DNA from: Paramecium tetraurelia
Taxonomy: Eukaryota
Direction of reading: 5' to 3'
Assembly: GCA_000165425.1 (NCBI GenBank)
Contig: CT868141.1
Location: 434,001 to 498,000 of the forward strand
DNA: 64,000 nucleotides
The notes below the pieces were generated by a model, which saw only the letters and a list, made by a program, of their open reading frames with translations, was not told the origin of the DNA and did not search any database. Both the position numbers and the translations under genes were made by a program. Within the stretch, counting starts at the first letter, position 1; every line of letters begins with the position of its first letter. Of this stretch, positions 360 to 57,320 are shown piece by piece.

Positions 360-408
360 TTTATTATATTTAATTTATATAAAACAAAATTGACTAATAA
401 TCGAAATC

Positions 409-3400
409 ATGTAAATTTGGTTGTTTGGTCTCTTATAAATTATACCTTTTGCATATTCTTAATGCACTTCAAGACAGTATGATGATGGAGTAGGTGGATG
501 TTTGGATTGTTAAATACAATGCGCAACTTGTACAACAGGTACTTCTTGCGATACTTGTACATCGGAGTATTATCAATCTGGAAGTGATTGTTTAAATTGT
601 GATCCTACTTGTAAAGAATGCTCTGGAACTTCAAATTATTGTACTAATTGTGATACATCCCAAAATTTATATTTGGATCAGGGAACAAATACATGCATCG
701 CATGTGATTCGCCTAAGTTCAAAGATGGAATAAATTGCGTGGATACATGTCCTGTTTATATCAATTTGACAGATTCCACATGTGTTGCTGCATGTGATTC
801 GAATTGTTTGACATGTGCAATTTACAGCAACTCTTGTACGACTTGCGATAGCAGCAATTATTTGGAATTAATTTCAAATCAATGTGTGACTGCTTGCGAT
901 GTTAACTGCGAAACATGTTTGACAACTTCAACAAATTGTCAAACATGTAATTCAGGCATGTACTTAGACAACATAACCAACGCGTCAGGAACTTGTAAAC
1001 AATGTAATTCTCCTTGTTCAGTTTGTTAATCTCCTTCAGACGTAGAAATTTGCACTGATTGTTAAAGCAATTTTTATCTTGATGGAGCATCGACCTGTTA
1101 AATGTGTGATTCGACTTGTTATGAATGTACAGGTTCATTAGCAACAGAATGTTCATAATGTGTGTTAGGAAAATATTTGCAAACAAGTGGAACTGATAAA
1201 ACTTGTGAAACTTGTATATCCCCTTGCGATAATTGCTCATCCGATACAATTTGTGATAGTTGTGTTTCTGAGTATTATTTGAATGGAACCACTTGTGATC
1301 CTTGTACAAGTCCTTGTTTTACTTGTGAAACAACTGATACACATTGCTTAACATGTTTACCAGGTGACAATAGAGTAATAGTTAACAATTAATGCATTTG
1401 TGATCAAAACTATTTTGATTAAAATAACGGGGATTATTTATGTCCCCCTTGTGATCCTAACTGCAAAACTTGTGTAGATTCAGCCACTAAATGCACTAGT
1501 TGCTATGACAAATTCTATTTAGATTCAAATGTATGTCAGCCCTGTCATTGGAATTGTGTAACCTGTGTTACAACAGCAACTAATTGTTTAACATGTGACG
1601 AAGTTGTGAATTTGAGGATATTCTATAATAACTAATGTTTGTGCATTAATGGCTAATACTATTCAGATTCATAATAAATATGTGCTCAGTGTGTTGATCC
1701 ATGTCAGAATTGCTTAAGTGGATAAGACTCAAATGGGGTTGATTATAATGGAACACAATGCACCTCCTGCTAAGCCATATACAATAGAAATCTAAGTGGA
1801 ACTATTTGTGTTTGTAAGTCTGGATATTTCGATGCTGGTTTCTTGGCTTGTCAACCATGTGCATCATATTGCGTATCATGTCTAACAAGTGAAACGGATT
1901 GTGATGTTTGTAAACCCAACACTTTTAGAGATACTACTAAGAAATGTCAGTGTCTCGATGGATATTTTGGAACATCCACAGTATGTCAGCCATGTACATC
2001 ACCATGTTTGAATTGTGAAATCTCAAATACTCATTGTCTATCATGTATCACCGGAGTGAATAGAGTGTTGAGTTCCAATGCTTGTATTTGTGCACCTGGG
2101 TATTACGAAACGACAACATCTCCAAAGGTTTGTCAACCATGCACTCCTCCTTGTGCCACTTGCAAATATTTCCCTGATAAATGTTTCAGTTGTATTGCTA
2201 AATATTACTAACCATCTGGTCAGTTAACATGTTTACCTTGTGATGTGCCTTGTGAGGAATGTGCCCCTAATGATGGTACAAAGTGCAAGACCTGCTTAGC
2301 CGTTTAAAATAGAGAAGTGTTAAATCAAGTATGTGTTTGCTAAATCGATTATTACCAACTTGATAATGTTAGTCCCTGTATCAAATGCATAGCTCCTTGT
2401 TATGAGTGCGAAGACAATGGAGATGGAACACAATGTGCTTCGTGTAAAGCAGGAGATAACAGAACTGTCGATACCAATAAATAATGCATATGTACTAGCA
2501 ATTACTATTCATAATTATCTTCATTCATATGTCTGGCTTGCATCAGTCCTTGCTTGGAATGTTTAGATGATGCACTTGCTCTAACAGCAGATGGAACCTA
2601 ATGTGTTACTTGTTAACCTGGACTGAATAGAATCATAGATAACATCAACAATAAATGCAATTGCCTCGATGGGTACTATGAGACAACTGGAGTTCTGACT
2701 TGTACTTAATGTTCTTCTCCATGTTACGATTGTGCTGACAATGGAACAGGTGCAGAATGTACAACTTGTCCTCCTGGAACATTCAGAATTGTTGATTTAT
2801 AAGCCTGCATCTGTTAAGATGGATATTATTAAGTAGGCACCAATCCTATTTGTAGTCCATGCAATTACACCTGTCAAAAATGCTATAATTTGGCATCTGA
2901 ATGCCATCTTTGTGATCCTCTCAAACATCGTACAGCTGTTGGCAACACCTGTATATGTCAAGATAACTATTATGATAACATGACAGATGATCAAGATTGC
3001 AAACCTTGTACAAGTCCCTGTGAGTAATGCCATATGAATACTAATGGAACAAAATGCAAAACATGTTTAGCTGGTCTTAACAGGCATTACTCCAATTATC
3101 AATGCATTTGTGATGATGGATACTTTGAATTGAATGCTACGTGTGTTAAATGTCATTCCACATGTATGACATGTAGTAATTCATATTCCTGTTTATCATG
3201 CAATACAACCTAATATGATTAAGTCACATTTAGAAATGGCTTGGCTTGTGTATGTAAATAAGGATTTGAAATGAATTCATCTGGACTATGTATACAATAA
3301 TGTCCTATTGATTGTTTAACTTGCAATGTTAATACCTGTTTAACTTGTAGTAGTAATAGAGTCTTATCAAATGGAAGGTGTGTTTGTGCTCTACCTGATA

Positions 3401-6400
3401 ATACAAGATTTTGCAGGGCTTCTTGCTCAGATATTAACTTTGGAAAATTGGCTGCATCTTTAACATCTCCAAGTTCTAATATTCTACTCTCAAAGCTAAA
3501 TTCAAACTCATTATCTCCTTCCACTATAGTTATGGATACGATTAATGATTCCTCTATTTCCTGTTCCCTTATAAGTTCGCTATAATAGGGTGTTATTTCA
3601 ACTGATAAAAATAACTATAATTCTCTATTCTTCAAACCTTAAGAAATTCAAATTGACCAAAGTCCTTTTGGCAATCAAGCCTCGTATTTTCATTTTGTTA
3701 AAGATAATATTCGATACTTACTCTTTTAAAAGGATGCATCTACCTTAAATTTAAGAATGCAATACTAATTTGCTACAGTGGCAAATAATGAAAATATTCA
3801 AAGCAATGTTGTACCTAAATCATCTCTCAATTAATAAATTGTGACAATCAATATTGATAATACATATACTGTTGTATTAGTGTTCACTTATGATATTAAT
3901 GATCCTCCAACCATCACTAGTTAGATTATGAATGAGTGCTACTAATTGAGTATTCAATTCAGTTCATCTTAACCAGTTATTTTATTAACAGAATTCTATG
4001 TAAGCAGTGCAACCTTTAGTGCTGCTACAAATGCATAATTAATAGCTGTAGCAAATTATATAGGCCAATTATATTGGTAGGGTATAGCATTCGAATGCAC
4101 ACCTCATCCTAAGAATACCAAATAAATGTTTTGGGAAAATCATCAATTTTTACTTGAAGTTATACCAACTAATTTATTGCCATTAAAAGTAACAGATGGA
4201 TCCAATTATATTTCAACAGCATTGTCTTCAAGTAAATTTAGTGGAAATAGTGCATTGATTTAATTAAATAATGTAGATGTTAATTATTAGACTACATCTA
4301 TACAATATGATAGTAGTGGATTCTCATATTTCACTGTCTAATTTCCAGAAATATTAGTCTTTGGTTTGCACATGCTATCATAATTCATATTCAATCAATT
4401 TACAATATAACATTTTATTACTAGTGGATATTAAATTAGCACATAACAACTTACATATACTAGCAATAATTACCAATTTGTAGGATATATGGTTGATATA
4501 TATGGTACAACATCTGTTAAGACTTTGATATTCGGTTACAACTAAGGACACACATTTAATGTAGTTTAAAATGCAAATAATATATTGATAACGGTGAGTG
4601 GAGCTAATGTCAAATAGATTAATTTTGCTGTTATGGCTTTTGATGATACATTAATAAATAATTCTTATCAAACCATTTTTGAATAATACATAAAATTGTT
4701 AATAAAATCAATTGAATTATCGACTAGAACACCCTTAAGATTTGTCAATCAATATTGGAAATTGAGTTCTATATCAATAACTGGGACATTTGAGGCCTTA
4801 ACTGAATAAATAGGAGGATACTTTATAAGTAAAGGAACAAATGCAATAAATACTAAATTTCCCTTTGATATTTCTCATAAGATAAGCACAGATCTTAAAT
4901 AAAATATTATCTATACTAATGGGTATTTAGTAAATGGAGACTCTGTTTTTGGTAAATTAACTAAGTACTTTACATAAGCTAATAATAAGTTTGTATTAGG
5001 GGCATAATTAAATAATATTCAGTATATTTCAATTTCAATGGCTTCAACAGATACATTTGTATCATGTTCATAATCGGAAACTTTGTATAAAGACATTTAT
5101 GCTTACATAAGTTTGTGTAAGAGGACTGAAACTTAAGTTTATTAAATATTTATCATCAATTTGAATGAATATGATGGGTCTATTGTATTATCATAAAGCA
5201 GTACTGAAGTAAAGATAAGCAATATTCAAAAAATCACATAAATATATTACTTAATGGTAGTATCTAAAAGTTCAAATAATTTAAATACTTAGGCTATTAT
5301 TTAGGATATTTATTAAGGAATCTTAAAGTCTTCTGGATATTTTGGATTTGATTTTCAGTGTTTGACCTACAACAACGATCTTTAATGTGAAACTTATAGA
5401 ACTGGATATAAGACATCAATGAGCAATGAATTTGATACAGCATAGAATTTGGTTACTGATGTTTAAAATATGAATGGCAAGAAGTGTAATTATTTTAATT
5501 TCGACAATGCTGCTACTATTCTCAAAAATAATAAAAATACTGTAAACACCCTGGTAACTACTCAAATGTTAAATTACATATAGCCAACAGTGAAGGATTA
5601 CTTTTTTTAATATGATGCTTTGGAGATTGGGAGATTGACATCATCAGCTAAGCCAAATGAATATCTGTTTGCCCCTAAGGCTGGATAACTTGAAGTATAG
5701 ATGATCACACCTACATTTTTTGGTGCTCAATCACAAATTTACTAATATATTAAGAATATGTTGTCAGTCACTTTAATTGAAACGAATATTGATCAGATTA
5801 TTATTGATAATAAGCTTGCCAATAATAATCGAGGTTAAATGAAGTCTATTTCCTACTATTTCAGTAACTACGGCGTAGTATACAATTCAATTTGTGTTAC
5901 CACTTTTGACACTTAAATCTTTCCAAATACTTTCGAATGTTTCTTAAGACCTTTGAATTCAGATTTTGATACAATTGATATGCAGTTGACTTCTCCTCTC
6001 CAAAGTCTAAAATACAAGATAAATCAGAAAAATAACATTATGTTAGTATATATACTTTTAGCCGATTTTGGACAGACCCCCACTGCAGAGACTAAGATTT
6101 AATCAATTAGTCAATAGATATACGAATAAGTTTTGAATTCAGTTTAGAATGATCAATGTAAATGTTGGGGGAGATACAGATAAAAAGAGAATAATTGTAG
6201 ATGTTAAGATGGATATTATCCACCAGCAGATACAGCATTTGGATTACTTGATTGCCAGCCTTGTGATTATAAGTGTCTGACTTGTCAGTTTTCTAAAACA
6301 TAATGTATAAGTTGTCCACTGAATTCAAATAGAGTTTTAGACCTGACTTTATTTACATGTCAATGCAAAACAGGTTATTTGGAATTAGGTGTTATTTTAT

Positions 6401-9400
6401 GTAGTCCATGCAACTATACTTGTGGAAAATGCAATGCATTACCTGAAAAATGTACTGAATGCGATATTCTGCAACATAGAACTTGGGATAGTACCAACTT
6501 TTTATGTCCTTGTAATGATGGATATTATGATGATGGAGTCAATTCTCTTTGTGCAAATTGTGATCATAGTTGTAGTAAATGTTCATAAGCAGGTAAGGTA
6601 TGTTAAGCCTGTGTATTATCTGTTTTTAGAACTCAATAACCAGATAATACATGTCCATGTGATCCTGGATATTATGATGATGGTGTTAATGCTTTATGTT
6701 AGCCATGTGATTATACTTGTTCTACATGTGTAGATACAGCAACTAAATGCACTGGATGTAAGATCAACTCACATAGATCTTTATCTAATAATGAATGCAT
6801 TTGTGATACTCATTATTTTCATGTTAATCTAACTTGGGATTGTTAACAATGTTCAATTTATTGTAATGATTGCACTGGGACAGCCAGAAATCAGTGTACT
6901 AATTGCTAAGCAATTTAGAATAGATAGTTAGTAGATACAAGTTGTGAATGCAAAATTGGATTCTTTAAGGACGCTTTAGATTCATCTACTTGTCCTCCTT
7001 GTGACTATTCATGTAGGAGTTGCAGTGTGATGAGCAATTAGTGTTTGAGTTGTGATTTGACTGCTAATAGAATATTTGATTCATTTAATAAGATTTGTAA
7101 TTGCAAGGAAGGTTACTTCGATGATGGTGTAAGTGGAGCGTGCTAGTCATGTTCATACAGATGTAAGACTTGTGTCAATAATGCTAACTAATGTTTGAGT
7201 TGTCCCTTAAATACAAATAGAAAATTTGATGCTGTTACTAACACATGTAAATGTTAGCCATCTTTCTCTGACACTGGCGTGGCTGTGTGTATGAAATGCC
7301 ATGCGAGTTGTTAGGAATGCTAAACTACAACAACCACTTGTATATCATGCAACATCAACAAAACTTTCAGAATAGACAACAGTGTCTTAAATAATACTTG
7401 TCCTTGTCAATCTGGTTATTTTGATGATGGAATGAATATGGTTTGCAAATCCTGTCATCCTTAATGTAACACTTGTTCTAGTTTCTCTGTCTGCACTTCA
7501 TGTAATACTCTCTATGGAAGAATCGATAAAAGCAATATCAATAATACATGTCCTTGTAATGATGGGTTCTTTGATGATAACATCAATAAACAATGTTAGG
7601 TTTGCAATTATAGTTGTTAAACGTGCATTGAAAAGAATACAAAATGTGTTTCATGTAATACCACTGGAACTTAGAGATCAAAGTAGCAGGATTCTTGTCC
7701 TTGCAATGTTGGGTACTTTGATGATGGATCTGTGACTTGTCAACCTTGTAATTTTAAATGTCTTACTTGCAAATAGAACAGTGTTTCATGTACTTCATGT
7801 CCACCAAGTAGACAAGGCTCAGATTGCTCATGTAAGATTGGCTATATAGAAACTGGAGTCAAAGATTGTCTTGCTTGTCAATTTAAATGTGGACTATGCA
7901 CTTTGGCTGATTTAAATACTTGTTTATCTTGCAACTTGAATAGAATCAATCCTCCCTCTTGTGATTGTGACACTAGTTATTATGAGTTAGATAACAAATG
8001 TTTGCCTTGTCCAAATTAGTGTCTCTCTTGTGATGTCACTACCACTTGTTTCACATGTAAAGGTGACAGACTCAATAATCCTATTTGCAATTGTCCAGAT
8101 GGCTATTATGAAGATGGAGTATCCTTAAATTGCTCACCCTGTTATGGATTCTGTGCCACTTGTAACATTGATAAATGCATGACTTGTTAAGGGAATAGAA
8201 TCTTAAAACCAAAATAATGTGATTGTCCTGAGAACTCTATCAGCCATCTTGACACTCCCTTTTGTTCCAATTGTCAAGTAGCTGTCATCTAAGCCTAATT
8301 CACTAGTGATTTAAGCATCATTTACATTACTTTTCCATTCAATGTACAATTTCCATCAGTCAAGAAGTTCTCTTCTTCTTAAGCTTGTTAATTGACATTC
8401 TCCACTAGTACTTATTAAGCTCTAGGATATTCACCATTATGTTCAATTACTCAAGGTAACACACTACAAATTGAATTATCCGAGGGGAGTAGTATAACTA
8501 TTGATTTCTAAATTGAATTCAAGGATGATTTTATCACTAAAACAGGATGTAGTGACGCATTAAGCAAATTTATTTTGTCTAGCTTCTCATACAATTCAGT
8601 CTAACTGAATCCTCAATTTGAACTCTCCTCATATAGTGATCAAATCACCATCTGCTAAGATATTCAAATCAATATTCTCAATAAGTAAGTGGATGGAAAG
8701 AGAGACTTCACAGAAGTTGTTTGGACAATTGTTAATATGAATCCATCAATATAATCAGTGGCTTAATATCTATCTTAACTATTAGCAGAAGCTAATTCTA
8801 AAAATTATCAATAGATTAATATTGCTGCTCTTTCACTTAGCGAATATGGAACTTACGTGATTTAACTAAAGGCAAAAAATTTCAGAGGATAAACTTTTAC
8901 TGCTCAAACAACTATATAAACTGCATCATATGAATCACCAATTATTAAATTAGATTCTAATTAATAGTTTATCTTCGGAAGATGGGAAGACTTATCATTT
9001 ACAATCTAGCTCAAACATTTATCATGCTACTCAGATAAAGTAATTGAAGTCTTTGATGCTTTAAGAGTTAATTGGACTGAAGTAGCCAAGACACCTAACG
9101 ATACAGTTAGTATTCTCAAGGAATCAGTCATCTCAGAAACAGATGGAATGACATTTTTAAACACTTTGTTGATTCCAGCCTATACAGCCGTAATTGGATC
9201 CACCTACACCTTAAGTGTGACAGTATCATTGACTAATAAACCAATCAAGACATCACTACAATTTACAATAACAATAATTAGCAGTCCTATGCAAGCCTAT
9301 ATTCAAGGTGGAACCAGAACGTAATCATTCAATGATTATGCAGTTCTGAATGGATTCTGCAGAGATCCTGATCTTGATTTTCCATGGAATAAAGATCCAG

Positions 9401-12400
9401 ATATTACTTTTAATTGGAAATGTATTAATCTAGCCACTGGTGCAAGTTGCACAGATTCAAATAAAGAACTCTTAGAATTAAATGTAACTGATGCTACCCA
9501 GACCTTTAAACCTAGAGTGTTAGATCCTTATTAACCACTTTAATTTGTTATGAAAAATACTAAGCATTCAACCATATTGATTACTTAAATTATCCTATTG
9601 GTTATTGAAAATGATTTGCCTAATATTTAAGTAAGTTACCCATCGGGATATGATAGTAGGTAAATATTGTTGCATGAAGAACTCAATTTTACATTAGATA
9701 CAACCGTTGATCCTGATTCATTAAAGTACTTTTGCTAAATTGTATATAATTACAATATTGTGGCATCATTTACATTTAAGTTCTTGTAAGTCAAGTTTCG
9801 TATTTGGGATTATTGGGAGGATACTGATCAATCAATTAATGCAATTTAAATTAAAATGGCTGCCAAGGATGTCTATCATTTCATGCCTTCAAGTACTTCA
9901 GTTAACTTATAATTGAATATACCACCTGAAAATTGTAGATTTTCTGTGACTCCATCCACTGGAACATCCATTACTGATCTATTTGTTCTATCAGTTACTA
10001 ATTGCTTTGACTTTTAGCTTCCTTTATAATATCAATTTCATATTTATTCTAGTTAGAAAACATTAGATAATGATAATTTAATAGGGGAAACAATAAATAA
10101 AAAGTCAATAACAGATAAATAATCAAGTTCTTAATTGTAATTAGTATTGCCAACACCTATAGATCTGGATAATAGTATTGCTTATGAATTAGTGCTTGTA
10201 GCAAGTATTTATGATAATAATAATGGAATGAAAAACCTAACCAAAACGGTTAAAGTTAATAGTATTTATCAAAAAATAGAAACTTCAGATTTCTAATCAA
10301 TTTTATTATAAATTAGAAGAGCACTTAAATTAAGTGACACAATTGATGAGTCAGCTCTTCCCTCATTATTTATAGGCAGTCAAGAATTATCAACTTTATA
10401 TAGTTAATTATAGCCAGAGAAAAAGGCATAAATGAAAAACATTCTTAAAGAAATTTATTCTATTTTACAATAATTTTAAGGCAAAATGACAAGCAAAGTT
10501 TTAGAAGAATCACTTTTATCATCAATCGCAGCCATTGGTAGAACTGGTATCAATTATGAAATGGATGGAGCTAATGTTGTCGATTTCTATACAATAAAGT
10601 AATAAATTAAAAAAACTGTCAAATAGTTAAATAGATAAATAAATGATTTAGATTATTATTTAAAATAAAAATAGAAATCAGGAGGATCAACATCAAAATT
10701 TGAAGATGCAATCAAAGCTTTAGATAATACACTTCTTAATAGTGGTTTTGTTACTGATACATTATTTAATGCGATCAAATCTAACTCATTTTAAGGAGCA
10801 GATGTCACGGATGCAGATGTTAATTTGCTAAAAGAATAAATTTAATAAATAAATAAATTAGTGGCAGTAGCAACTTTAAAGAGAAGTTTAGCTAATGAAA
10901 AACCTAGACAATATGCAGGTTAATAGATGGGTATGTAAGCCTATAAATCAACACCCGCTTAAATTGTTTCAGTTTTAGGTAATAAGATTACCCCCCTCTT
11001 TTTTGGAACAGAAACTTATGCAGATGAGGATATCTAAGGGTCTGGAAGCAATGATAATTTGAATTTGGAAGAGGAAGTAGATGAAATAAATTATGATGAA
11101 TATCTTTCTATGTTAAATGGAACCAACAGTACAAATAGCACTAATAGTACAAATAGCACAAATAGTACGAATAGTACAAATTCAGGAAATAAGAGAAGAC
11201 TCCTTTAATTTGTTGAATGGATTTAAAATAAAAATAATCTTCATTATTTAAGAAACTTATAATAAATAAATCCTACTACTGTAAAATAATATGAAGTTAG
11301 TATGTCTAATTATGCTACAAGTCCAAATTTGAATGATCCTAAATTTAAATCATAACTTAATGTTAATCAAACTAATGAAGTTACCAATTCATCAAATATT
11401 ACTCATGATTAATCAATAGTTAGTAACTTTGGTACAATTTAACCAAATATCACAATGACAGAAGATGGTAGTAGTACAGAAATAAAGAGCCTTGATGGTC
11501 AAACCATTAAATTATCATTTTCTGCTCCATAAAATGATAGTGCCAATTCAACTATGGAATGCTATTCTGAGGCAAAAGATACATGGGAAACTGGTACATG
11601 TAAAATAAAGAAAGATGTGGATTCTAAAGGTAATATTGCTTACGTTTGTGATTGTGTGGTAGTTAATCCCACTACAGTCATCACAAAATTGGATAGTTTT
11701 ATTTCAAACAAATTAAGTGCAGTGTTTAATGCTGACTCTTTGAACATCTTTTTATAAATTTAATTTTGGAAATATGCCATTTTCTACATTGCTATTGGAT
11801 TTACAGGTGCTTATGTTGCACTCATGGTTTTAGGATTAAGGAAGGATAATTAAGATTTTATAGAAGAAATCACCAAAGAATTGTAATTTACTGATGAAAA
11901 CATTCCAGACAACATTAAGAAGTTGAAGTAACAAATCAATAATCTAATTATTGAAGAGTAAAGCAACGAAAACTCAATTGATGCAGAAGAGGAGAATAAG
12001 ACAGTATTGAAGAAAGAAGATATGAATAAATTAGCTTTATTTACTTTAAAAGGATAAAGTGATTTGGAATTCAAAAAAGATGAAGAAGGTAATTTAATTA
12101 TTCCTGAAGAGAGAGATAGCAATATATTAAATTAGAGAGACATTCAAAGTTTATAAGTAGAACGAAATAAAGCTAAAATCAATTTTAAATAAGTTCAAGA
12201 TTAGTTATAATAACATTAACTTTATAATCCCTCAACGAATAAGCAATAAGGAAGAGCAACAGAGTTATCAAAGGTAATTAAAAATGTTTATACAATTCAC
12301 GATTTGAAATTTCAATATGGTTAAGAAATCAAACTAAAGCCTTTAACATTAAAAGTTCTTTGGGAAGGAATATTAGTAACTATTATATTTTTTAACAATA

Positions 12401-12978
12401 GACCCTTCATAGAGTATTATCAATATTAATGTTATATGATGATGTTATTAGTAGACCAGCTAGATTTGCTTTGATTTATGCCAAAACTATTTTAGTATTA
12501 GCATTATCAGCATTATTTTCTGGTAACATGGGACCTGTTTACGGTACTTTAATATCAGTTGGAATTGGTTAAGTCATCAATGTGATTCTATCCATCATTA
12601 CAGTTACAATGAAAGCATCTCCAATCCTCAAATTTTTAGGAATTTTATTAACGATTGCAATATCTGCTGTGTGCTGGTTCATTGTATTGATGCTTTCTGC
12701 CAGCATGGAAGAAACCTAAGTATTTTGATATAATATTATTATAGGCTAACATATGGGCAGTTTAATTTGCATCAACCTAAGTTATAGACCTAATCATTGT
12801 AGAGTTCCTTATTATATCGATTAAACTTTCCATATACCCTTGGGCAATCAAAGCATTACATGATCCTGACGCGAATGCTTCTAAAATTCTTGCTAATTTA
12901 CTGTTTATTGCAGTTGCTTAACCATAAATTTCAAAGTTCTTTGAGGTGGAGGATAAGAAAGACAACTTTGAAGCTTGA
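409..12978 (+). CDS. Giant cysteine-rich polycystin-1/REJ-like multi-pass surface protein, copy A (~4172 aa)
   Basis: ATG409 opens MQIWLFGLLQIIPFAYSQC (signal peptide). One frame continues (TAA/TAG=Q) to introns 12376-12401 (26 nt) and 12720-12744 (25 nt), with TGA at 12976-12978; the spliced length of 12519 nt is divisible by 3. CxxC repeats ~460-3430 and ~6150-8280. REJ-like motifs AYIQGG...RDPD...FNWKC (~9295-9423) and NIPP...VTPSTG...PLQYQF (~9916-10040). GPS-like C..W....C...CDC (~11560-11680). TM helices from 11764 on. Confidence 0.85.
11116..11208 (+). repeat. Coding 9-bp microsatellite NGT(NST)6 followed by KRRLLQ in copy A
   Basis: aat gga acc aac agt aca aat agc act aat agt aca aat agc aca aat agt acg aat agt aca aat tca gga aat aag aga aga ctc ctt taa. 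Confidence 0.95.
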
Positions 12979-13101
12979 ACTTATAATCATCAAATTATTA
13001 TTATTATTAAAATTCTATTTGATATTATTTATTTAATCGAAATTAGTTGAGATGAAAAACAACCACTAGATATACTTAATATTGATATGATGAAAACAAA
13101 C

Positions 13102-13995
13102 TCAATATTGCTTAGATAACAATTGTTACTAAAGAGCATAGTGTTTTATATTTAATTGATTATCCCTTTCTTATAATTTATTTTAATAATGACCTTTAAG
13201 ATCATCAGGCACAATGTCATCGATACCTTTGCGATTCTCTCCTTTTAATTTACAATTCAAATTCTATACCTGTGAGTAAATTATAACCACAGTTGGCTCT
13301 ATTATCTAAATTTTAGGCTCTAGCTAATTATCTCACTTAAGTCATTTCGTCTTGTCTTTTTAGTGCTTGACCTTGCTCGTTTTAAGCATACTCTAATGTC
13401 AAAGGGTTGTACGCCAATCCGTTTAAATTTCTTTTGCCTTGTGTAAATTACTCTTAATGGTATTGTCTTTTCATTTCATCCTGCTATGATGATGATTAAT
13501 ACTTTTTATTGATAGTGTTCATTCCTCTACCATATCATGCCTTCTCTCTCTAAATTGGCTAGTCTCCTTTATTCATATTATAACTGTTTTTATTTATTTT
13601 AATATTCCCTTTGCTATTTATCTTGAACAGCAAAATCCTTTAAGAACCTCTCTTAGTCTACCAGATGAATATTAAATATACCCTGTTAAAATAAAGTAGT
13701 ATTCGGTGCTGGACTATGTAAAAGAGTTTTCATATCTTCCCTTTAAGGAGTGTCAAATTCTTCAAAAATTAGATAAGTGCTTACGTCTTGATTGCATTAC
13801 GGTTTATTACGAATTGACTTCTTTTAAATAGTCCTAAAATTTAAAATTACACAATACTCTCTCTGCCCTAGTTCTTGGCTATTGATTGTAATAAGGTTGC
13901 TGATTCTAAGGTTTGAAGATTCCAGCCCCATAACTCATTGAAGAAGGTTAGTAAACATCTTTAGGGTTGTAATCCTATTATTGAGAGAAGAGCAT
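13102..13995 (-). CDS. Hypothetical protein with YNPLT/YNLLTG motifs (possible ciliary/cortical microtubule-associated protein)
   Basis: ATG13995 (MLFSQQQDYNPKDVYQP), several 20-28 nt GT-AG introns, C-terminus AYNPLTLEYAQNEQGQALKRQDEMTQVRQLARAQNLDNRANCGYNLLTGE...SKQY, TGA at 13102-13104. Internal exon boundaries are not fully resolved. Confidence 0.6.
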
Positions 13996-14024
13996 ATTAA
14001 TATTTATAATATTTATATAAGTAT

Positions 14025-15458
14025 TCATTTTTTTTTTAGCCACCGATAAAGCATCTATATTGCATAACATAACCAAAAAATTCCAAGTAGAATTAAACAA
14101 ATGGTTACAAAAACAAAGCTCAATGGTGATAATAATATGCAAGCAATCGATAATAAACTAATATAGGCTGTTTTCTTGCAACAATGATAATCCTAAAATT
14201 TATTTTAATGGACACAATCCATATAAATAATAGCAGGCAGTGTAAATGATAGAACGATGAATCCAATTATAAACCCAATCAAAAAGATTGGAGGTCCAAA
14301 TATTAGAACAAATAAAAATCTAAAAAATCTAACTATTTTTGGATATTTATAAGGGTCTCTATGAGAATATCTCAATCCAGGACAGCCAAATAAGTTGTAA
14401 TATTTATAGTGTTTATCTGTGATTTTCTATTAGCATAGCCAACAAAATTAATTTTTGCAATATTGACAAATCATTTGATTACATCCATCATTTTTTTGAA
14501 TAAGCGAACCACAATTATTGCATTTTTTAATTTTAAACTTCTTAAGAGATTTAATAATGTCTTAATCTAATTGATCTTTGCAAGGTTGGTTACTATGAAC
14601 TTTCATATTGCAATTATTGCAAATAAGCTGTCCACATGAACATTTGAGAGTTTTCTTTTTACTTTTTCTCACTATTTCTTCACAACCAGGTCTAGGACAC
14701 CAAATAAAATTTTAGTCCAATTAGATCTTTCTGATTTTTCTAAATCGCTTCAATTTATTGAAATTGTCTTGATCTAGTAAGGATTCCAAAATATCATCAT
14801 TGAATTTAAACTCGCAATGAATTTATGGACAATAAATTTCTTCGACCAATCCATTATTAATCTTATCGATGATATAATTTTGCAGGCAATCTCTAATATT
14901 ATTTTTAAGAAGTACTAACAAAATTGATGATAACATTCTAATTTAATATTTTAGATCTTCAATTCATTTAAGCATATATTGCAAGTTAGACCTAATAAAT
15001 TTTCTTATTATTCCCTTTATTTTTAATCATTTAAATAACTAAAAAAATTGGGACTTACTTTTCCTATCAATTATTTGATTTAGTCAAAATAATGTCCTTA
15101 TTATTATTTCGATGTTGCCTTTGGAAACGTCTATCTTACAAATTAAATACTGTACTTCCATTAAAAGAATAGTCTAAATGACTCTATGTAAAACTACATT
15201 TTCATCATTTTGCCTAATGCATTCCTCTGCCATATTTTCCAGGACATATATAGCCTTATTCTAGTCCAATCCTAGTTCATTTATGCGAGTGAGGATGTAT
15301 TTTTCTTTTAATTTCTTTTCGCCATCCTCTAATTAAATGGGAAGAGAATTTCTTCTAGTTGCTTGAGTTTGATTTTATCCCAACTTATCTAATTAATCAT
15401 AGTAATCTGAATGGGACTTAGTCTCCGGATACTCTTAATTAAAATTGGAATATGACAT
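14025..15458 (-). CDS. RBR (RING-IBR-RING) E3 ubiquitin ligase with C-terminal TM segments
   Basis: RING1 CNIC...ECYHQF..DCL...CPQIHC; IBR WCPRPGC...CSCGQLICNNC...H...C; RING2 KKCNNC...IQKNDGCNQMICQYCKINFCWLC; hydrophobic tail ending WLKKK-TGA at 14025-14027. Confidence 0.88.
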
Positions 15459-15539
15459 CAATACTATAAAAATTATTTAAATAAAATTTTACATTCACAA
15501 AGGATAGCTTTACTTATGTCATTCCATTTAATCAAAAAT

Positions 15540-17190
15540 TACAATTGAAGCCTCATTATGAAATTAGATAAATGTAAATTATTGATTTTTGTGATTCAAA
15601 AAAGATATAACCCATACTTTTAAGAAGGTTAAAGGTATTTATCAAAAATTATAATAGATTCAATTCCTGATAATTTGAGATGTATAAGCATTAAATAAAT
15701 TTAATTTCTGAAAGATCAATCAATAATAAGTTTATTTTAGCTTTTTCTGTTTTTTTAAAATTGGAAAAGATTAGTTATACTCTTATTTTACACCTACTTT
15801 TTAAAAGTTCTTCGCCTAAAAAATTAAAAATGAATTGTATTAATAACCAACTGAAAAATACTCTTGCTGCCTTTATTTATGGTCAGATTCCTTATTTAGA
15901 AACATCTAAAGGCAGATGTTGATCCTTAACTTTCACAAGAATTAAAATTATTAAAATTCTATAAATTCTTTAAATTGTATGATTCCAATAGTTCCATTAA
16001 TAAAATCGGTTGTTTAAGAATCGTAGCAGTTATTTACTGCTAAAGATGAATTCGAAAAGAAACAAAATGAATTAATGTAATTAATAATAGATATAACTCA
16101 ATCCTTGGATTAAGTGGAATACTTCGATAACATTCAAGAAGAATTATACACTTACGATGAAAAGCAATTTATAAAGTAGTGCAAAGATCTTTTGCACCAA
16201 AGTGAGCAGTTAGTCCAATAATTACCATCCAATTTAACTAAGTAAAATATTTGATTTTATATAACTTAAAGAATAAATGGCTATCTATATAGTAAAACTA
16301 ATAACTATAAAGAGTTACTACAACATTTATAAGAACTAAATAAAATAAGTTCTTAAATTCGTTCATTAGAATTATAATCCTATGAAGTCTTAAAAACTGT
16401 GGTAGTTTTTTAACCAAAGATCTAATGTAAATAATGATTCTAAACTATAAGCCATGCATGAAGTGTAGATATTTCTTAAACTTAAAGCTCCTAAAGAAAT
16501 ATAAGACATATTTAATTAATACCCTAGACATTTAAAAAGTGAATATGCTTTCAAATTCCAGATTGATGACTCTTTACTCTCTAAAAATGTTTTCAATTTT
16601 TCAAGAAAGGAGTTTATGAAACTCCAATAAATAAAAAAAGATGCTCAAATTTATACTATCTCAAAAAAATAACATTGTTCATTAGAAATACGAAATATTT
16701 AATAAAATTAATATATACAATAAAAATCATAGATTTTGAAATCACAATTTACTTCTCTTCATTAGGAATAACATTAAGAACAAGAGAATAAAGCGCAGTT
16801 GTTTAGATTATATTTAGTAGTTAATGGATAAAATGGAATATCTATTATAAGAGATAAAGATTAACGAATATATGTGGGGTGTGGTTAAGACTTTTGTTTA
16901 TAAGAAAAAGATAAAATTATTATTCTATAAAACTCTAATTAAGAGACTTTAATATCATATAATATTAAAAGGTTAATTATTAAATAATTATGAATCCTAA
17001 TAGTGATTATAATTGTTAAGAATTAACATATTTTATAGGATCTCGTTTATAATTAATTTATTTACATTTCTTATTAAATAATCATAAAAATCCAATTATT
17101 TTATTTAAATATATTTATTATAAGAGGTTTGGAAATCAAATCAACAGATTTTCTTTACGAAAATATCTACTCTAAATTTCAAAATCTTGA
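15540..17190 (+). pseudogene. Possible degenerate gene: coding-like fragments in shifting frames
   Basis: The stretch ESQQLFTAKDEFEKKQNELMQLIIDITQSLDQVEYFDNIQEELYTYDEKQF (~16018-16240) and an intron-like gtaaaat...ttaaag look coding. The flanks carry in-frame TGAs and frame changes, and no clean model could be built. Confidence 0.3.
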
Positions 17191-17216
17191 TTAATAAAAA
17201 ATTAAAATATAAATTA

Positions 17217-17943
17217 TCAAAAAATGCTCTGAAAACTCGGCCCTTATGTATTATTATATAATGGTTTGTTATTTGGTTAAAGTTATTACAGTTAATTTTA
17301 TTTCTCTTAACATTATTGCTAGAAGTCTTAATGATTATTTGTAATATCATTGAATATTGGTTATTATTAGAACATAAACTAATTATTGGATTAGAGTGGG
17401 TTAACATAGAGTTGTACCATTTATCCTTCCCAGTCAATATTAGTTCTTGTAATCCTTGGAGTTTAAACATTAATTTATCTATAAACTTTATCAATTATAA
17501 CACAAGATGGATCATTCTCAATCAAATCAGGGTCCAAATACGAATTATAAACATAATACCCAACCTATGATGAAATTAAACTTAGAATAATTACTCTGAA
17601 GAATTCATGGTTTCTATATCTTACACTTAATATTATTGCTGTCGCGCCAAATAAATCTTCTTTGCTTGGAATTAACTCTAATTTTGGACCTGCAGTCATT
17701 AATGTAAACTACATGGTCCCTTGTTAAAGAGGAGGCATTGAAAATTGCTCCAACACTTGATCATGCTTATCATTATTAGGAGACCCAATGTAAATAAGTC
17801 TAATATGTTGTCTTATTGTACTTCCAATCAATTTCTTAATCTAATTGCCTAAGCACTTCAAAAGTGATTTGCATTTAGATTGGAGTATTGAACAGTGCAG
17901 TGCTTTGGTCGAAAACAATATTTGTAATATTTATAAGTGCCAT
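17217..17943 (-). CDS. ASF1: Histone H3/H4 chaperone ASF1
   Basis: MALINITNIVFD...ITFEVL...IDWKLIYIGSP..DKHDQVLE...LFGATAIILSVRYRNHEFFRVGYYVYN.Y.DPDLIENDP...PRITRTNIDWE, two tiny introns, Q/N-rich tail, TGA at 17217-17219. Confidence 0.92.
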
Positions 17944-17979
17944 AAAATTTAAATAATAATAAACCCTCGAAATTTAATA

Positions 17980-18815
17980 TCAAATTTTAATCAACGTATT
18001 TATATAAGCATATCTGGAAAACACAACAAATAGCTTTCTATACCACACAAATTGTGAATGGTGGATTTGCATTGACTTCCATGCCTTAAGCATATTTAGA
18101 TTCACCATTAGATTATCATTTAGGATGGAAGAGACAAAGAAATCTAAAAATGAACTATACTTTCTAAATATATTAGTGGTCTCTAAGACAAACACCTTCA
18201 GGTCTTCTGTTCTTTTCATTGTAGATATTGCATTATAACAGGCAATATGATTTAAATGGCCTGAAATACCATGTTTATCAAATGTAATAATCCCCTTTAT
18301 ATTATTCTCATATATGTATCTATATACTATTAACTAATTCATTTTACTTCTAGACAATTTTTTAAATTTTTTCTATAGGCCACGTAGCTGTCATTGAATC
18401 TTATAAATCTTCATCATTTATAATGGTTAACTTAATAAGTTAAATTATCATATACTTTCTTTATCTTCAAGTATTGACAACACTTTTCTAATTCTGATTC
18501 TCTAATCTTTCCGATCTTATTAGCATTTCCATTTGATAAACACATTAAATGAATCTCGTAATTGTTATCTTGCAAATAGCTAATAGTTGGTAAAAAAAAC
18601 ATTGCTTCATCATCAGGATGAGCTGTGACTAATAAAACAGATTTATTTTCCTTTTCTAATATATCAATTATTACTTCTTTCTAATCCTATTGTTTCTTTG
18701 ATTTGAAATACAATAAGACAAAAATGGTGATAAAGTTTGAAATTATTAAGCCATATTTTAAAATAAAAAGCAAGTCATCATCTATTATCTCTTCAATAAT
18801 ATCAAGAAGTCCCAT
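17980..18815 (-). CDS. PIGL: GlcNAc-PI de-N-acetylase (GPI anchor synthesis, PIG-L/GPI12)
   Basis: N-terminal TM segment, then VLLVTAHPDDEAMFFLPTI, LMCLSNGN...GKIRESEL, ITFDKHGISGHLNH and HHSQFVWYRKLFVVFSRYAYINTL, all PIG-L family motifs. Confidence 0.92.
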
Positions 18816-19373
18816 AATTAATGTTTAAAAATTAAAATTTTAATTATATCACCAAAAATACTAGAGAAATAGTTTTTAAGATTATTAGAAATTATGTTAA
18901 AGATGAAACTCTATTCAAATTATTGTTAAGAATTTAAAAATTTCATTTTCAATTTCATTGGACTTTCTTGTGTTATTTTTATTTCAATAATAATTTTATT
19001 ACAAAGATTTAATTCTATAAATATACTCTAATCTTTGAACTCTAATAGCCTTTCGCCACCATTTATAATATCAAATGTATATTTTTTAAATTTCATATGT
19101 ATATCTTAAATTAATATATAGTGATATTTTGATAAAAGTAACTCTTTCCAATAGATTAATAATTTAGATTTTATCTTCTGAAGACTTCTTTATCCATAAT
19201 AAGAATAAATTTTAAGAGATATTTATTTATCTTTAGATATTGCATTCAACAAATTATAAGCGTTAATAAAACTTTAAATAAAAAGAGATAACTTGATTTA
19301 TACTATATTTATGTTAATTTGTTCTTCCTAATTATGAAGAAAATAAAAATCATAATAATAATTATTATAATAT

Positions 19374-21898
19374 TCAAATGTTTAATTTTCTGTAATGTTT
19401 TTATTATTGAATTTCGTGATCTATAGCTACTTTCATTAGATCATTCTTTCTTTTATTGATTTAAGCTTGATAGGTATCAAACTCACTCATCAAATCTTTC
19501 AATTCAAATTACTTAGTTTATTCTTTGTAATCTCTATTTTAATCTTCAAAATGTTTCTATAATAATTCTTTCTCATCTAGTGCTTTTTGTAACTAATAAC
19601 TTAGGTTGACTTTTTCGTCAAATAGTTTTTCTATTTAATCATGCCTTTATTCTATTTCTAAATCTTTTAATTTGACTTCATTCTCCAACATTTCATTTCT
19701 TAATTTAGATTGATTTAATTCAAATTCCTTTTAAATATATTAAATAGATTACCATTTTCTTGATTTATTAATTATGATCAAACTCAACCTATGCCATAGC
19801 ATCACTATGTTGATCTTTCAGTTCATCTATTTAAATTTTTAATTATTAGATTTCTTCTAAATACTTATGCGTGTCTTCTTAGATCTTCTCTTCTTATTAT
19901 CTAACATCTATATCATAATATTCATTATATTAAGGGATGGTTACTTATTTTTTTTAAGGAATTTTTTCTTTCTCCTCTTATTCTAATGGAGTTACTGATT
20001 AATCACTTATTACACTTTTTTCATTAAAATTAGGCTGAAACTTTTCAGCATTTTTTAAGTCTTCGTCTTCTTAGACTTCAGTTTAAGTTGCCTTTTCTAC
20101 TTTTTCTACCCCTTAGAATTCATCCTCTTGATAATCAGGACCCACATATTGTTTTCCTTTAGATTTATCAGATCTATCATCATCTGCTATTTCAGCATTG
20201 ATAAGATCTTATTAATCTTACTGATTTTCTTTGTCTTTTTGATCTTGTTTTTGTTATTAGTCCTCTCCTTTCTCATTAGCTTTAACATAAACTCTTTTAG
20301 GCATATAGCTGTTAAACTTATCCATATGAATATCCTTTATATCAGAGGGTAGAACCTTAATATTATTGTGATAGTAATTGTAGAGGAAGTTGTAATCATT
20401 TTACAACAATGGATCAGTGATAAAGTAACTATAAATATCAATAGATACATCATTGTCGAAACTTGTGATGTATGTTTCTAATATATTTTTTAGTTTTTGG
20501 GACATCTCCTAAAATTGAGGTAAATTGCTATATGATCTATTAGTGTTGTTAAAAAAAAGATCTTTAAATAGATTTGCTATAGTAATAAAATGATCCATAT
20601 TGTAATCTTGATTTATAAATTATTCCTTAAGGTTGGGATTCAATAAAAATTTGGAAATAAATAAGTTCTTTACAGGGAAGGTAGCTTAGAGGTTGTCTGT
20701 AAAATGAGGAGCATCCTGTATGGTCTAATTGAATTAGGCAAGGAGGTTGAGGAGATCTGGAGGTAAGGTGGCAAAGAAGGAAATAAATTGAGTTTCTACT
20801 ATTGGTTAAACAGTAGCAAAAAACTTAGGAGGAGCCATTTTATGGTTTGGCAGTAGTAAGTCATCAAGTAGTTGTTAAAATTCAAAGTAAACAGGAGAGT
20901 ATAACAATTGCATATAATTTAGTAGAAATTAAAAGTAAGGATCACTATCATCCTAGTCTTTGAAGAGCATATCCCTTTTAGTTTAGGAATTAATGTATTA
21001 TTTAAATATATTGTGTATCATATCTTCCCCTTAGAATTTTAATTAAGAAAACTAAGATCTCTTGTAATTAGTCCTTTTCTTTGAATAGGCTGCAAAATAT
21101 ATTCTACCTAATGTAAAATGCACTTCTTTCACATTTATAGTGTCATTCTTGACGAATAACAGTTTCTTGATAATCAATAATTTATTGCTAAATATTAACT
21201 TATTGACTTCTTCAATCTCATCTCTCTCAGCCATACTTTATCTTTCTATAATATATTTACTAATTCTTCCTTTGTTGGCAATATAATCATCCAACACTTG
21301 GTCACTAACTTATTCTTTTTCTAAAATGTATTCCAAAGTGTTAACAAAATGACTAAGTTGTAATTTATTTTAGTCTGCATCGTTATAATTCATCATAATG
21401 TCTAAGGATTCAAAGAATTCAAAACTAGTCGCCATTCTTTCCAAGGCCTTAACAAATACTTTAACATCTAAAGGAACGTAATTTCCAATGCTTTCCATTA
21501 TTTTACCAGATTGCAAAGCCAACTGTGATTATTAACTTGTTTAATATAAACTTTGATGTATTTTTGCCCTATCTGAAGACTTATTTTTTGAATATAAATT
21601 AAATATTAATCCGTCTATTAAGAGTATGATTAAATCTATATATTGAGTGGCTGGTTGATCAGATCCTTCATCAGCTATTCTGACTACTTAAATCATAATG
21701 GCTGAAATAACTGCATCATAATATTCTTTTCCTTTTACTTCGATGGATTATTTCCAAGTACTCTAAAAAACTTCATTTATTTATTAATTTACATCCTATT
21801 TCATATGCTCCTTATCCAAATAAGAAATTGAAGGCTTGCCTAATATTGTTTTCGATTTTATCAGATGAGAATTGATCTTTTTTTTTTTCAAAATTCAT
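19374..21898 (-). CDS. Hypothetical protein (~800 aa) with coiled-coil C-terminus
   Basis: Long TGA-free ciliate-code frame with small introns near 19730-19755 and 19925-19945, ending RKLNI-TGA at 19374-19376. The start is either ATG21804, or ATG21898 if the 11-T run at 21878-21888 has one extra base. Confidence 0.6.
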
Positions 21899-22446
21899 AA
21901 TAATGTATTAACAATTATTTAATAATTTATATTACAAAAAAGCATAATAATTCTTATTCAATTAAGCTTCTTTGCACTAATGGTTTTCATTATAATTCCA
22001 ATATTATAGATCATTCCTATAATTAACATATATTATTGTTGTGATTTTAGTTTTAATCAAATGGTAAGTACTATTTAAATATAAATTACTTTAATTTTAT
22101 AATTTGAAAATTTATTCAATTTCATTATTAGCAGGGCATATATGCTCTTATTCTTAGAAATTATCAACTTAAATTTAAAATTTAAAAAATAAAACATATA
22201 ATTCATCAAAAAAGGATGAAACTTATCTTGTAGAGTTTATTTATGTTTTTTAATATAAAATATGTGATTATAATTCTTATAACTAGTTTTATGTTTTAGT
22301 TTTCTATCAATATCTATTTTTATCATTATTGTTTTAATAAGCTAAATACTATATAAATATTTAGGTAAGGATAATAGAATTAGGCATTTCTGATTATGCA
22401 AATCTTTATTATTTTTAGTTGAGAATAAATTTTTATATATAAATAA

Positions 22447-23295
22447 ATGGATTAATAACAATTTGACTCTGAACTGCAGACATACTTTCTACACATTAAA
22501 CATGAAATCAAATAGGAACACATAGAATATTTGAAAAAGCACCCAGAGTTAAATTAGATATTAAATGATTTCACAAGTTAGATTATTTTGGAGAAAGTAA
22601 CTTTTCAATAATATTTCAGCCTGATAATGTTTATCAATATGCTAAAGAATACTTCAGTTTCTTTAATCAAGAAAAAGATCTTAAGACTTGCAAGCCTTTA
22701 GTTATTTCAGGGGCCAGTGGAGTTGGAAAAGTAATTTTAAGTTATTAATTGTTCCTAATAGGGAACTTTATTATAGATGCTTTTTAAACAATATCCACAA
22801 TAATTTGTATTTAGTGTGAGCTACACAACAAGAGCACCAAGGCCTGGTGAAGTTCATGGATAACACTATTATTTTGTTAGCAAAGAGGAGTTCTAGAAAG
22901 AAATTGAAAAGAAGGCATTTTTAGAATATAGTGAAGTGCACGGAAATTATTATGGGACTCATTTGGCTCAAGTGCAAAAAGTGATGAAGTAAGGATAAGT
23001 CTGTGTGATTGAAATAGATGTTTAAGGTGCTGAAAAAATTAGCAAATCTATGCCAAATCAGTGTAATTATATTTTCATTAATGCACCATCTGTTGAGGAA
23101 TTGAGAAAGAGACTAACTGGAAGAGGAACAGAGACAGAGGAAGTCATTGAGAAAAGAATGAAAAATGCACAAAAAGAGATAGAGAAAGCACATTAATTAG
23201 GATTCTATAATGAACTATTAAACGATGATCTGCAAAAAACCTTTAAGAAACTTATTGATCTTCTCAAAACCTTTTATGTTGATCTAAAATTATGA
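22447..23295 (+). CDS. Guanylate kinase with N-terminal RIIa/Dpy-30-like dimerization-docking domain
   Basis: EYLKKHPELNQILNDFTSQIILEKPDNVYQYAKEYF (RIIa-like), then [50 protein letters not shown] and RLTGRGTE. Introns at 22597-22619 and 22731-22761. Confidence 0.9.
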
Positions 23296-23345
23296 AATGA
23301 ATTATAGAATGTTCAAATTATACAAAAACAAAATGTTTAGAATAC

Positions 23346-23660
23346 TCATCTATCATTCTTCCACTTATGACCACATTTTATGCATTCAAATGATATGGTA
23401 CTCTATTCGTCTGCTCCTCTAGTTTAGAATTCCCAAAAGAAGGCTTTGAGACATCCACATTTGTCGCATTATTCATCAGTAATTTATTTATTTTATTATG
23501 GATATGTGATAGGAGCAGGCTCTTTGGATTAAAATGTTTTTGTTAATCTCATTTCCTTTAATGGGTGATAATAAACGCATCCAGGGCATTTTAATCGATA
23601 TCCTGTACTAGATTCATTCTCTAAAGATAAAAAATTTGAGCATATCGGACAAAAATTCAT
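23346..23660 (-). CDS. RPC11: RNA polymerase III subunit C11 (TFIIS-like zinc ribbons), 104 aa
   Basis: MNFCPICSNFL...LKCPGC...CDKCGCLKAFFWEFQTRGADEQSTISFECIKCGHKWKNDR; single 315-nt exon. Confidence 0.82.
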
Positions 23661-23772
23661 TTAGAAAAATAATTAATAATATAATTATATTAAACATTTC
23701 GACAAATCAATTATTTCATAAAGAAAGAAATACTAAATTGATATCAAATTAACAATCAAATAATAATTAAAT

Positions 23773-56817: not shown

Positions 56818-57320
56818 TTTTTATATAAAATAAAATAACTAATTACATCACAATTAAGATAATACCATGATTTTAATTATTCATTTTATAAATTTATAAA
56901 CTTCAATTAAGTCTTTTTATAAACTTAATGAATCAGGAGAATTATAATAAGAATGTGAATTATTTTCAAAGACAGAATATTTAAAAATTATTGTGTTGTA
57001 TTTAATTTTTAAATGATTTTTTATAGGGATGCAACCTTGATTATATTAAAATTATATTTTTAATTGATATTATAAGATCAGAAGAGGGTTTGCGTTTATA
57101 AGACTTATTCATTCCATAAAATAAGTAACTAGTAGAGAAGATTCTAAATAAATTAAGGAATATTATTTTTAATGCAAAAATTTATTAATTAGAAAACAAT
57201 TATATAAATAATATTTATGATGAAAATGCACATATTTATGCTTCTTTATGAAGAAATACGTCATCCTTACTCTGATAAGTGCTATCTTGTTAATATATAT
57301 CCTTTTAATATAAATTAAAT

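Follow-up and report, generated by a model that had tools for sequence, protein, structure and literature searches.

A 64,000-nucleotide stretch of Paramecium tetraurelia DNA (contig CT868141.1, positions 434,001 to 498,000; hereafter the window) carries two giant paralogous genes, A on the forward strand and B on the reverse strand, which stand tail to tail with a 12.1-kb spacer between them. The pair is a mosaic in which homogenized tracts alternate with diverged blocks; the gene tree flips its topology from segment to segment, the tracts differ in age, and the blocks keep a constant phase. We interpret these features as segmental concerted evolution of A and B by recurrent gene conversion after one old local inverted duplication, and we put the probability of this interpretation at about 0.9.

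A sequence-only reading of the window had proposed that near-identical tracts, synonymous sites included, alternate with clearly diverged blocks. We aligned A and B by codon under genetic code table 6 and measured the synonymous difference (pS). A single inverted alignment pairs 922-13014 with 37146-25068 at 79.7% identity, and the sum of paired coordinates stays at 38074 from A2212 to A11091, as that reading had found at the two points it quoted. In its seven tracts, pS was in order 0.098, 0.271, 0.084, 0.114, 0.189, 0.036, and 0.097 (nucleotide identity 92-99%), whereas its four blocks gave 0.73, 0.75, 0.66, and 0.70 (identity 55-71%; measurement of the first block began at 880, since A 409-880 is not collinear with B). 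The alternation thus holds at silent sites, with pS of 0.04-0.27 against 0.66-0.75. The longest perfect run between the copies, A4240-4581 = B33834-33493, spans 342 bp and lies within the youngest part of tract T1 (4005-4733), where pS is 0.03 over 729 bp. Of 3017 codons that encode the same amino acid in both genes, 801 carry a synonymous difference. Up to 160 of these codons in succession are identical, whereas 5000 permutations never gave more than 46, and a clustering sum-of-squares statistic reaches 53710 against a permutation maximum of 17560. Four-fold sites differ at 91/561 positions in tracts and 214/367 in blocks, with saturation expected at 0.64; the blocks are therefore near saturation at silent sites. 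Both introns inside tract T5 are homogenized too (1 and ~2 differences), a weak sign, as they are short and constrained.

All seven tracts are real, but some of their limits needed correction. The first fades at ~5330-5380 and not at 5480 (pS 0.46 at 5330-5480), and the tract at 6110-6340 is identical only over 6124-6242. Near-identity extends beyond tract T4 through the first transmembrane segment (TM1) to 11882 (runs 11737-11828 and 11831-11882). Two short blocks (10969-11032 and 12862-12931) had been missed, as had stretches with an intermediate pS of 0.36-0.45, at 3200-3950, 6340-6480, 9200-10010, 10300-11050, 11410-11740, and 12140-12320. These stretches are older tracts, and the mosaic is graded, not two-state. 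Ten tract sub-blocks are unequal in divergence (chi2 = 92.6, 9 degrees of freedom, p = 5e-16), and synonymous divergence is not uniform along the gene; a uniform level would have refuted the sequence-only reading.

A sister species, Paramecium sonneborni, carries orthologues of A (P0001, CAD8081203) and B (P0002, CAD8081223), both on a 630-kb contig, and per-segment trees that include them flip in topology as the sequence-only reading had predicted. A four-way protein alignment yielded 374 informative sites: 140 species-type, 220 orthologue-type, and 14 third-type. Species- and orthologue-type sites fall in 47 runs, compared with a mean of 172 and a minimum of 138 in 10000 permutations, and the informative sites resolve into 5 tracts and 6 blocks over 12.5 kb (Table 1). 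Approximately unbiased (AU) tests rejected other trees in 10 of these 11 segments; T5 is the exception, with the orthologue tree not rejected (p = 0.077). The segments for the AU tests were drawn on the same data, and we repeated the count with the coordinates of the sequence-only reading, set blind to P. sonneborni. Its tracts hold 87 species-type sites against 1 orthologue-type site and its blocks 14 against 193, although the scarcity of orthologue-type sites there is partly built into the definition of a tract, and conversion in a single lineage is enough to create species-type sites. The independent part of the test is the identity between the two P. sonneborni paralogues, which are identical at 973 of 1103 residues in tracts (88%) and 1161 of 1829 in blocks (63%; p = 4e-52). 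They share identical runs of 110, 73, 74, and 113 residues, the first two in T2.

In tracts, paralogues are closer to each other (identity 0.95 and 0.88) than orthologues are (0.84 and 0.81), while in the long blocks paralogues are 1.5-2.2 times more diverged than orthologues. The short blocks, which were chosen after the fact by their density of orthologue-type sites, follow the blocks: identity in I4 is 32-36% between paralogues and 73-77% between orthologues, and in I6 75% and 96-100%. The age of individual tracts differs between the species. Over amino acids (aa) 1200-1640, within T1, paralogue identity is 97% in the window species and 81% in P. sonneborni, near the orthologue level; over 6110-6340, it is 95% and 100%, respectively. 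Because the youngest tracts differ between the species, conversion has recurred in both lineages, which, together with the unequal tract ages, bears out the earlier proposal that conversion was recurrent. The lapse of T1 in P. sonneborni is what one would expect if a single lineage can stop converting a tract. Singleton counts, made with no outgroup, gave no direction of conversion.

The comparison supports three points that go beyond the sequence-only reading: the duplication predates the P. sonneborni split, both lineages carry the mosaic, and its blocks keep their phase. The deepest split of the aurelia complex separates clade A, with P. tetraurelia, from clade B, with P. sonneborni (PMC10195154); for this depth, silent divergence is given as ~1 (10.64898/2026.02.20.707023) or as 1.7, read as ~320 million years with wide error (PMC4199370). 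Since the long blocks are more diverged between paralogues than between orthologues, the A/B duplication is probably older than this split; introgression of the P. sonneborni locus would make the time depth shallower. In all six blocks, each gene groups with its own orthologue in the other species, and no block is swapped. In a tail-to-tail pair, a crossover within a tract would swap every downstream block and invert the spacer. Hence, no fixed crossover separates the two species, and the exchange was either conversion without crossover or was followed by removal of chimeras.

We propose that a single local inverted duplication gave rise to A and B before the split from P. sonneborni, and that germline breaks in one copy would repeatedly have been repaired from the other copy, 12 kb away, without crossover. 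Conversion would be self-sustaining because it needs stretches of near-identity: similar segments would keep converting, and segments that had drifted past a threshold would escape for good. Escaped blocks would then have been inherited by both lineages, and the remaining parts converted independently in each. A high meiotic rate would supply the breaks, and a rate of 420 centimorgans per megabase is reported for P. tetraurelia (PMC13085455). Purifying selection on the protein may help tracts to persist; paralogue-specific selection on blocks may add to this but would not be required. In this scheme, we infer the germline location, the non-crossover repair route, and the role of identity dependence in setting the boundaries.

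Neutral simulations bear on whether the boundaries need selection. With uniform constraint, a mosaic arose in 1 of 662 runs and high concordance in none (0/662), a result that by itself seems to make the shared boundaries a sign of selection. A fairer model, with constraint calibrated on orthologue identity and an older duplication, overturned that argument: it produced a mosaic in 49 of 788 runs and a cross-species concordance of at least 0.65 (observed, 0.73) in 42 of 788, with 12 of 16 at the best setting. Because a neutral, identity-dependent model yields a shared mosaic, selection on the blocks is not required. The large lapse of T1 in P. sonneborni, in turn, weighs against selection for homogeneity.

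Several observations weigh against our interpretation or its neutral form. First, the neutral model is a crude one that succeeds only over a narrow range of rates and with an old duplication; most settings gave nothing. Second, the simulation contains no crossovers, so the phase of the blocks stays unexplained by it. Third, constraint is a poor predictor of tract position: the converted aa 1200-1640 have orthologue identities of 0.79/0.74, while the unconverted aa 2626-2939 have 0.83/0.83. Fourth, I4 and I6 show an excess of paralogue divergence over orthologue divergence, with ratios of 3.7 and 13.7 against 1.5-2.2 in the long blocks, which is a hint that these two short blocks may be tied to paralogue-specific function. 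Fifth, tracts have a lower GC (guanine plus cytosine) content at four-fold sites (0.142, 159/1122) than blocks do (0.188, 138/734), so that the rise often linked with conversion is not seen at these sites. Finally, the comparison covers two species only, with P. sonneborni compared at the protein level.

The strongest alternative accepts the same conversion and adds selection that holds the blocks apart, as in the divergence peaks of opsins and Toll-like receptors (TLRs); it would add to our interpretation, not replace it, and we regard it as a serious prospect that falls somewhat short of even odds. A and B would then be a receptor pair with a common core (REJ, transmembrane segments, and most of the unique region) and distinct ectodomain parts and cytoplasmic loop, and chimeras would be harmful, which would keep the phase. 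Such selection is favored by the six unswapped, in-phase blocks in both species and by the scarcity of third-type sites (14/374). It is also favored by the persistence of blocks of 22 and 24 aa between or beside tracts, though near-identical stretches reach at least 700 bp, and by the 13 orthologue-type sites and zero singletons of I4 and I6 combined. Part of I3 is, moreover, better conserved between orthologues than T1 and yet is unconverted. Against this, the neutral runs yield a shared mosaic, and the short blocks were picked by their orthologue-type sites. On general grounds, ectopic repair may also simply avoid crossovers.

A developmental origin of the mosaic is improbable. Common germline segments could build both somatic genes, or recombination between tracts could invert the spacer in some macronuclear copies. 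Alternative processing of shared germline segments occurs in Chilodonella. The tracts would be suitable substrates, and the Tetrahymena mating-type pair is described as assembled by site-specific recombination (PMC3608545). Common segments should, however, be identical, and the tracts differ at 1-8% of bases with graded ages. Read contigs contained no strand-changing joint, although they were aligned to B alone and could not properly show an A-B joint. We consider it equally improbable that tracts are kept alike as recombination sites, at which crossovers during macronuclear development invert the spacer in some copies and fuse the 5' portion of either gene to its partner's 3' portion. If this were so, 5 tracts and 6 blocks would supply the soma with a repertoire of giant chimeric receptors, and germline A and B would stay in phase.

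Collapse or cross-polishing of A and B during assembly, a concern raised with the original proposal, is very unlikely. In two short-read DNA runs from separate studies, word depth over B 32804-34285 was 94-104 (X1) and 171-190 (X3), against 45-51 and 102-113 in single-copy bins, and in both the B blocks are covered by read contigs of 0.9-4.9 kb without other letters. Independent reads thus confirm the B blocks and cover the tracts at about twice the single-copy depth, so the tracts are not an assembly collapse. Among the 40 variant letters listed for B, of 149, 38 are A's letter, and the 14 top-ranked sequencing runs contain 93-96% of the sampled words of A 3200-13100. Moreover, the tracts are graded and not identical, with no perfect run above 342 bp, and the same mosaic occurs in the assembly of a separate species. 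On the other side, one error in B is demonstrated: the frameshift at 39454 is an extra base left out in X1, X3, and X20. The short-read contigs, which are Logan contigs and drop variants, also break at tracts and cannot phase the blocks, and either of X1 and X3 may come from the assembled strain. A second apparent +1 frameshift of B, near 41800, falls in a T run. DNA-run contigs have long loose ends at 26323, 28241, 31557, 32331, and 32820, some of which may be germline insertions and others short matches to Cys-rich genes. Flanks of loose ends showed no clear TA signature of germline insertions (internal eliminated sequences) as tract edges, among 18 listed of 96, several of them on short Cys-motif matches.

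We give as little credence to a recent duplication in which a third paralogue or an introgressed copy supplied the diverged blocks. The genome holds a family of ~40 members, and introgressed DNA is reported in P. sonneborni (10.64898/2026.02.20.707023), but A groups with A and B with B across species in all six blocks, and no close third copy was found. T1 and I2 queries each matched only A and B (2 matches each) in the 72.09-Mb, 697-contig assembly searched, with germline-limited DNA outside the search, and a REJ-region query gave 38 further matches of only 23-30% identity. Least probable of all, strong purifying selection or codon bias alone would fit the REJ and transmembrane tracts being the more conserved parts (orthologue identity 0.84-0.89), but identity reaches four-fold sites and introns, and paralogues in tracts are closer than orthologues and have species-specific residues in common, at 87 species-type sites.

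P. sonneborni has two full-length copies and one broken fragment. Among the best 1972, 8000, and 1808 candidates scored, protein searches for further species returned only the two P. sonneborni orthologues and one 60-aa fragment, and a representative protein search gave 9 matches, one a strong fragment. The broken A-like fragment, P0004, lies on another P. sonneborni contig (110 kb) and is 57% identical to the window's A and 50% to P. sonneborni A; it may be a copy that has decayed or that came by introgression. In P. sonneborni, the model of B (P0002) starts inside the repeat array, and its duplicated C-terminal part of ~330 aa is either an error of annotation or assembly or a true tandem duplication. 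Elsewhere in the searched genome, two other inverted pairs of the REJ family (C681:135700-157000 and C71:130000-143300) are uniformly 64-67% identical with no patchwork, so inversion alone is not the cause of the patchwork. Near a contig end (C71:175000-215000, L022-L025), at least 3 tandem family members rise from ~75% identity in the Cys-rich part to 95-99% toward the 3' end; partial homogenization thus occurs elsewhere in the family.

The mechanism is already known, and A/B is a new, old, unusually long-lived, and clear example of segmental concerted evolution of the TLR1/TLR6 type. In mammalian TLR1/TLR6 and avian TLR1A/B and TLR2A/B, neighboring receptor paralogues are described with the same converted and unconverted boundaries across species, tree flips, and identical codons, but over two or three segments, not 5 tracts and 6 blocks in 12.5 kb (PMC3125219). 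The close pairs BMP8A/B, DDX19A/B, and TUBG1/2 are reported to have converted in segments for more than 100 million years in several lineages, with the cause of persistence unclear; that study used raised GC as support, whereas GC is not raised in A/B, whose block silent sites are near saturation (PMC2720389). Red and green opsins, in the Teshima-Innan model, likewise have peaks of paralogue divergence flanked by converting DNA, but in opsins it is known which residues are selected, and introns, being neutral, convert, while the A/B mosaic is obtainable neutrally and no selected site is known (PMC3924837). Within the genus, paralogues from whole-genome duplication can be closer within than between species; they lie on paralogous scaffolds, however, with median longest identical stretches of 106-125 bp, and very few are said to be still converting (PMC4199370, PMC10195154). 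A/B is local, inverted, and recent in its exchange, with its 342-bp perfect run and the 729-bp stretch at pS 0.03. Conversion between old Paramecium paralogues is thought to have mostly stopped (PMC4199370), and in A/B it is still running while the other half of the pair is near silent saturation.

By description, Tetrahymena MTA/MTB and Paramecium mtA resemble A and B in their Cys-rich repeats and several transmembrane helices, and MTA/MTB is an inverted paralogous pair (PMC7786109). The terminal region of these mating-type proteins combines furin-like repeats with 5 transmembrane segments. MTA and MTB are, however, head to head and functionally distinct, while A and B are tail to tail, have REJ, and are differentiated in blocks despite conversion. 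The authors on MTA/MTB held that conversion in the palindrome would have blocked differentiation (PMC7786109). The available text of the surface-antigen (PMC4235209) and mating-type (PMC7786109) papers does not describe the A/B pair, and a literature search, with most subscription journals and supplements outside it, found no paper on it. With 11 alternating segments, an almost intron-free gene, high recombination, and 13 sequenced species in the aurelia complex (PMC10195154), the pair offers a direct test of whether conversion mosaics need selection or whether identity-dependent repair suffices. Because tracts hit both copies, RNA interference constructs, read mapping, and dating for A/B must rely on blocks, which are also candidates for whatever sets A and B apart in function.

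The window lacks long open reading frames (ORFs) under the standard code, and two very long ones open under table 6. Together with introns of 25-26 nucleotides (nt) with GT-AG ends, a GC content of ~29%, and P. sonneborni as the source of the closest proteins in a protein search, this marks the window, on sequence grounds, as Paramecium aurelia-group macronuclear DNA. B is transcribed (RNA runs X20 and X24): both introns are spliced in X20, and 172 reads of X24 have nearly all the same orientation. In A, a REJ domain matches Pfam PF02010 (E = 4.9e-24, 85 bits against a cut-off of 25), while PLAT, channel, and GPS had no Pfam match (scanned to 12471). Five hydrophobic segments at the C terminus exceed the hydropathy threshold, in keeping with a multi-pass protein, and a Cys/Trp motif precedes TM1. 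This GPS-like motif and the region limits of A were set by eye and the transmembrane segments by hydropathy; the structure model has a predicted local distance difference test (pLDDT) score below 50 at the motif, and no PDB sequence matched it. The REJ-to-TM1 model is usable only over its first ~370 residues, where the REJ region is modelled as three beta-sandwiches resembling FN3/Ig-like chains, with generic matches of low TM-score. The model of the unique region has a pLDDT of 32, too low for tract edges there to be related to domain edges.

A and B thus resemble PKD1-like and other REJ-module proteins in the REJ domain, the three modelled beta-sandwiches, and the Cys/Trp motif that follows before TM1; they differ in having ~5-6 transmembrane segments and not 11, no Pfam GPS, PLAT, or channel match, long Cys-repeat stalks, and a unique 900-aa region. 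Paramecium variable surface antigens have surface-antigen repeats and a glycosylphosphatidylinositol anchor. A has no Pfam match to the surface-antigen repeat family, only a weak VSP hit below cut-off, and its C terminus is multi-pass. From their architecture, we regard A and B as putative surface receptors for adhesion or sensing. Part of the unique region (A ~4800-5320, aa ~1465-1640) is weakly similar (E = 3e-6 to 6e-5) to repeated segments of the large metagenomic proteins P0007, P0008, and P0010, and the cluster of P0010 includes a bacterial S8 peptidase.

Table 1. Coordinates of the A and B genes and of the tracts and blocks between them (positions on A unless stated; TM, transmembrane)
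Feature	Position	Strand	Description
Block I1	940..3349	+	Cys-rich I; pS 0.70; 61 orthologue-type vs 7 species-type sites; AU test
Tract T1	3406..5380 (B 34668-32694)	+	First two thirds of unique region; 54 species-type vs 2 orthologue-type
Block I2	5392..6094	+	Last third of unique region; pS 0.71; 34 orthologue-type vs 1 species-type
Tract T2	6103..6874 (B 31971-31200)	+	Start of Cys-rich II; 26 species-type vs 0
Block I3	6889..9223	+	Rest of Cys-rich II and pre-REJ region; pS 0.66; 86 orthologue-type vs 4 species-type
Tract T3	9343..10912 (B 28731-27162)	+	REJ and helical region, mixed ages; pS 0.32, 0.11 at 10010-10300; 26 species-type vs 4
Short block I4	10969..11032	+	22 aa between two tracts; 8 orthologue-type vs 0 species-type
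Tract T4	11047..11740	+	Linker, GPS-like region; 14 species-type vs 1
Block I5	11884..12148	+	Predicted cytoplasmic loop after TM1; pS 0.69; 17 orthologue-type vs 1
Tract T5	12169..12751	+	TM segments and both introns; 7 species-type vs 2; AU p 0.077
Short block I6	12862..12931	+	24 aa, C-terminal; 5 orthologue-type vs 0 species-type
Gene A	409..12978	+	4172 aa, two introns, spliced coding sequence; ORF 394-12474 under table 6
Gene A order, N-terminal half			Signal peptide, Cys-rich repeats I (aa ~19-1010), unique region of ~900 aa (~1010-1915), Cys-rich repeats II (~1915-2625)
Gene A order, C-terminal half			REJ region, helical region, N-S-T linker with KRRLL, GPS-like Cys motif, TM1, cytoplasmic loop, at least 4 more TM segments
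Intron 1 of A	12376..12401	+	26 nt, GT-AG; 1 difference from B intron 25682-25707 (spliced in X20)
Intron 2 of A	12720..12744	+	25 nt, GT-AG; B copy 25338-25363 (26 nt, spliced in X20), ~1 substitution and 1 indel apart
Spacer	12979..25100	.	12.1 kb, unrelated genes; A-B similarity ends just past the stop codons
Gene B	25101..43580	-	~6140 aa with both apparent frameshifts taken as assembly errors; architecture of A plus long Cys-repeat expansion
Gene B ORFs	41712-43691, 39416-41851, 25654-39810	-	Three pieces in assembly; stop at 25101
B-specific Cys-repeat array	37305..43160	-	102-bp (34-aa) units, ~5.9 kb

The array specific to B holds ~57 Cys-rich units that are not in A, with exact internal repeats of up to 166 bp. 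As these repeats occur at shifts of 2-14 units, they point to probable exchange within the array. Ahead of KRRLL, a 9-bp repeat encoding N-S-T (A 11128-11181, B 26899-26943) is one unit longer in A. In the spacer, the genes at 14028-14963 (-), 17220-17990 (-), and 22423-23292 (+) resemble by eye what we take to be an IBR-type E3 ligase, ASF1, and a guanylate-kinase-like protein. The ORFs at 19720-21894 (-) and 55336-56847 (-) have no Pfam match and one genome match each; searches returned no retained genome-duplication twin for these two ORFs, nor for A and B. An M1 aminopeptidase is encoded at 57782-59641 (+; PF01433, E = 3e-52).

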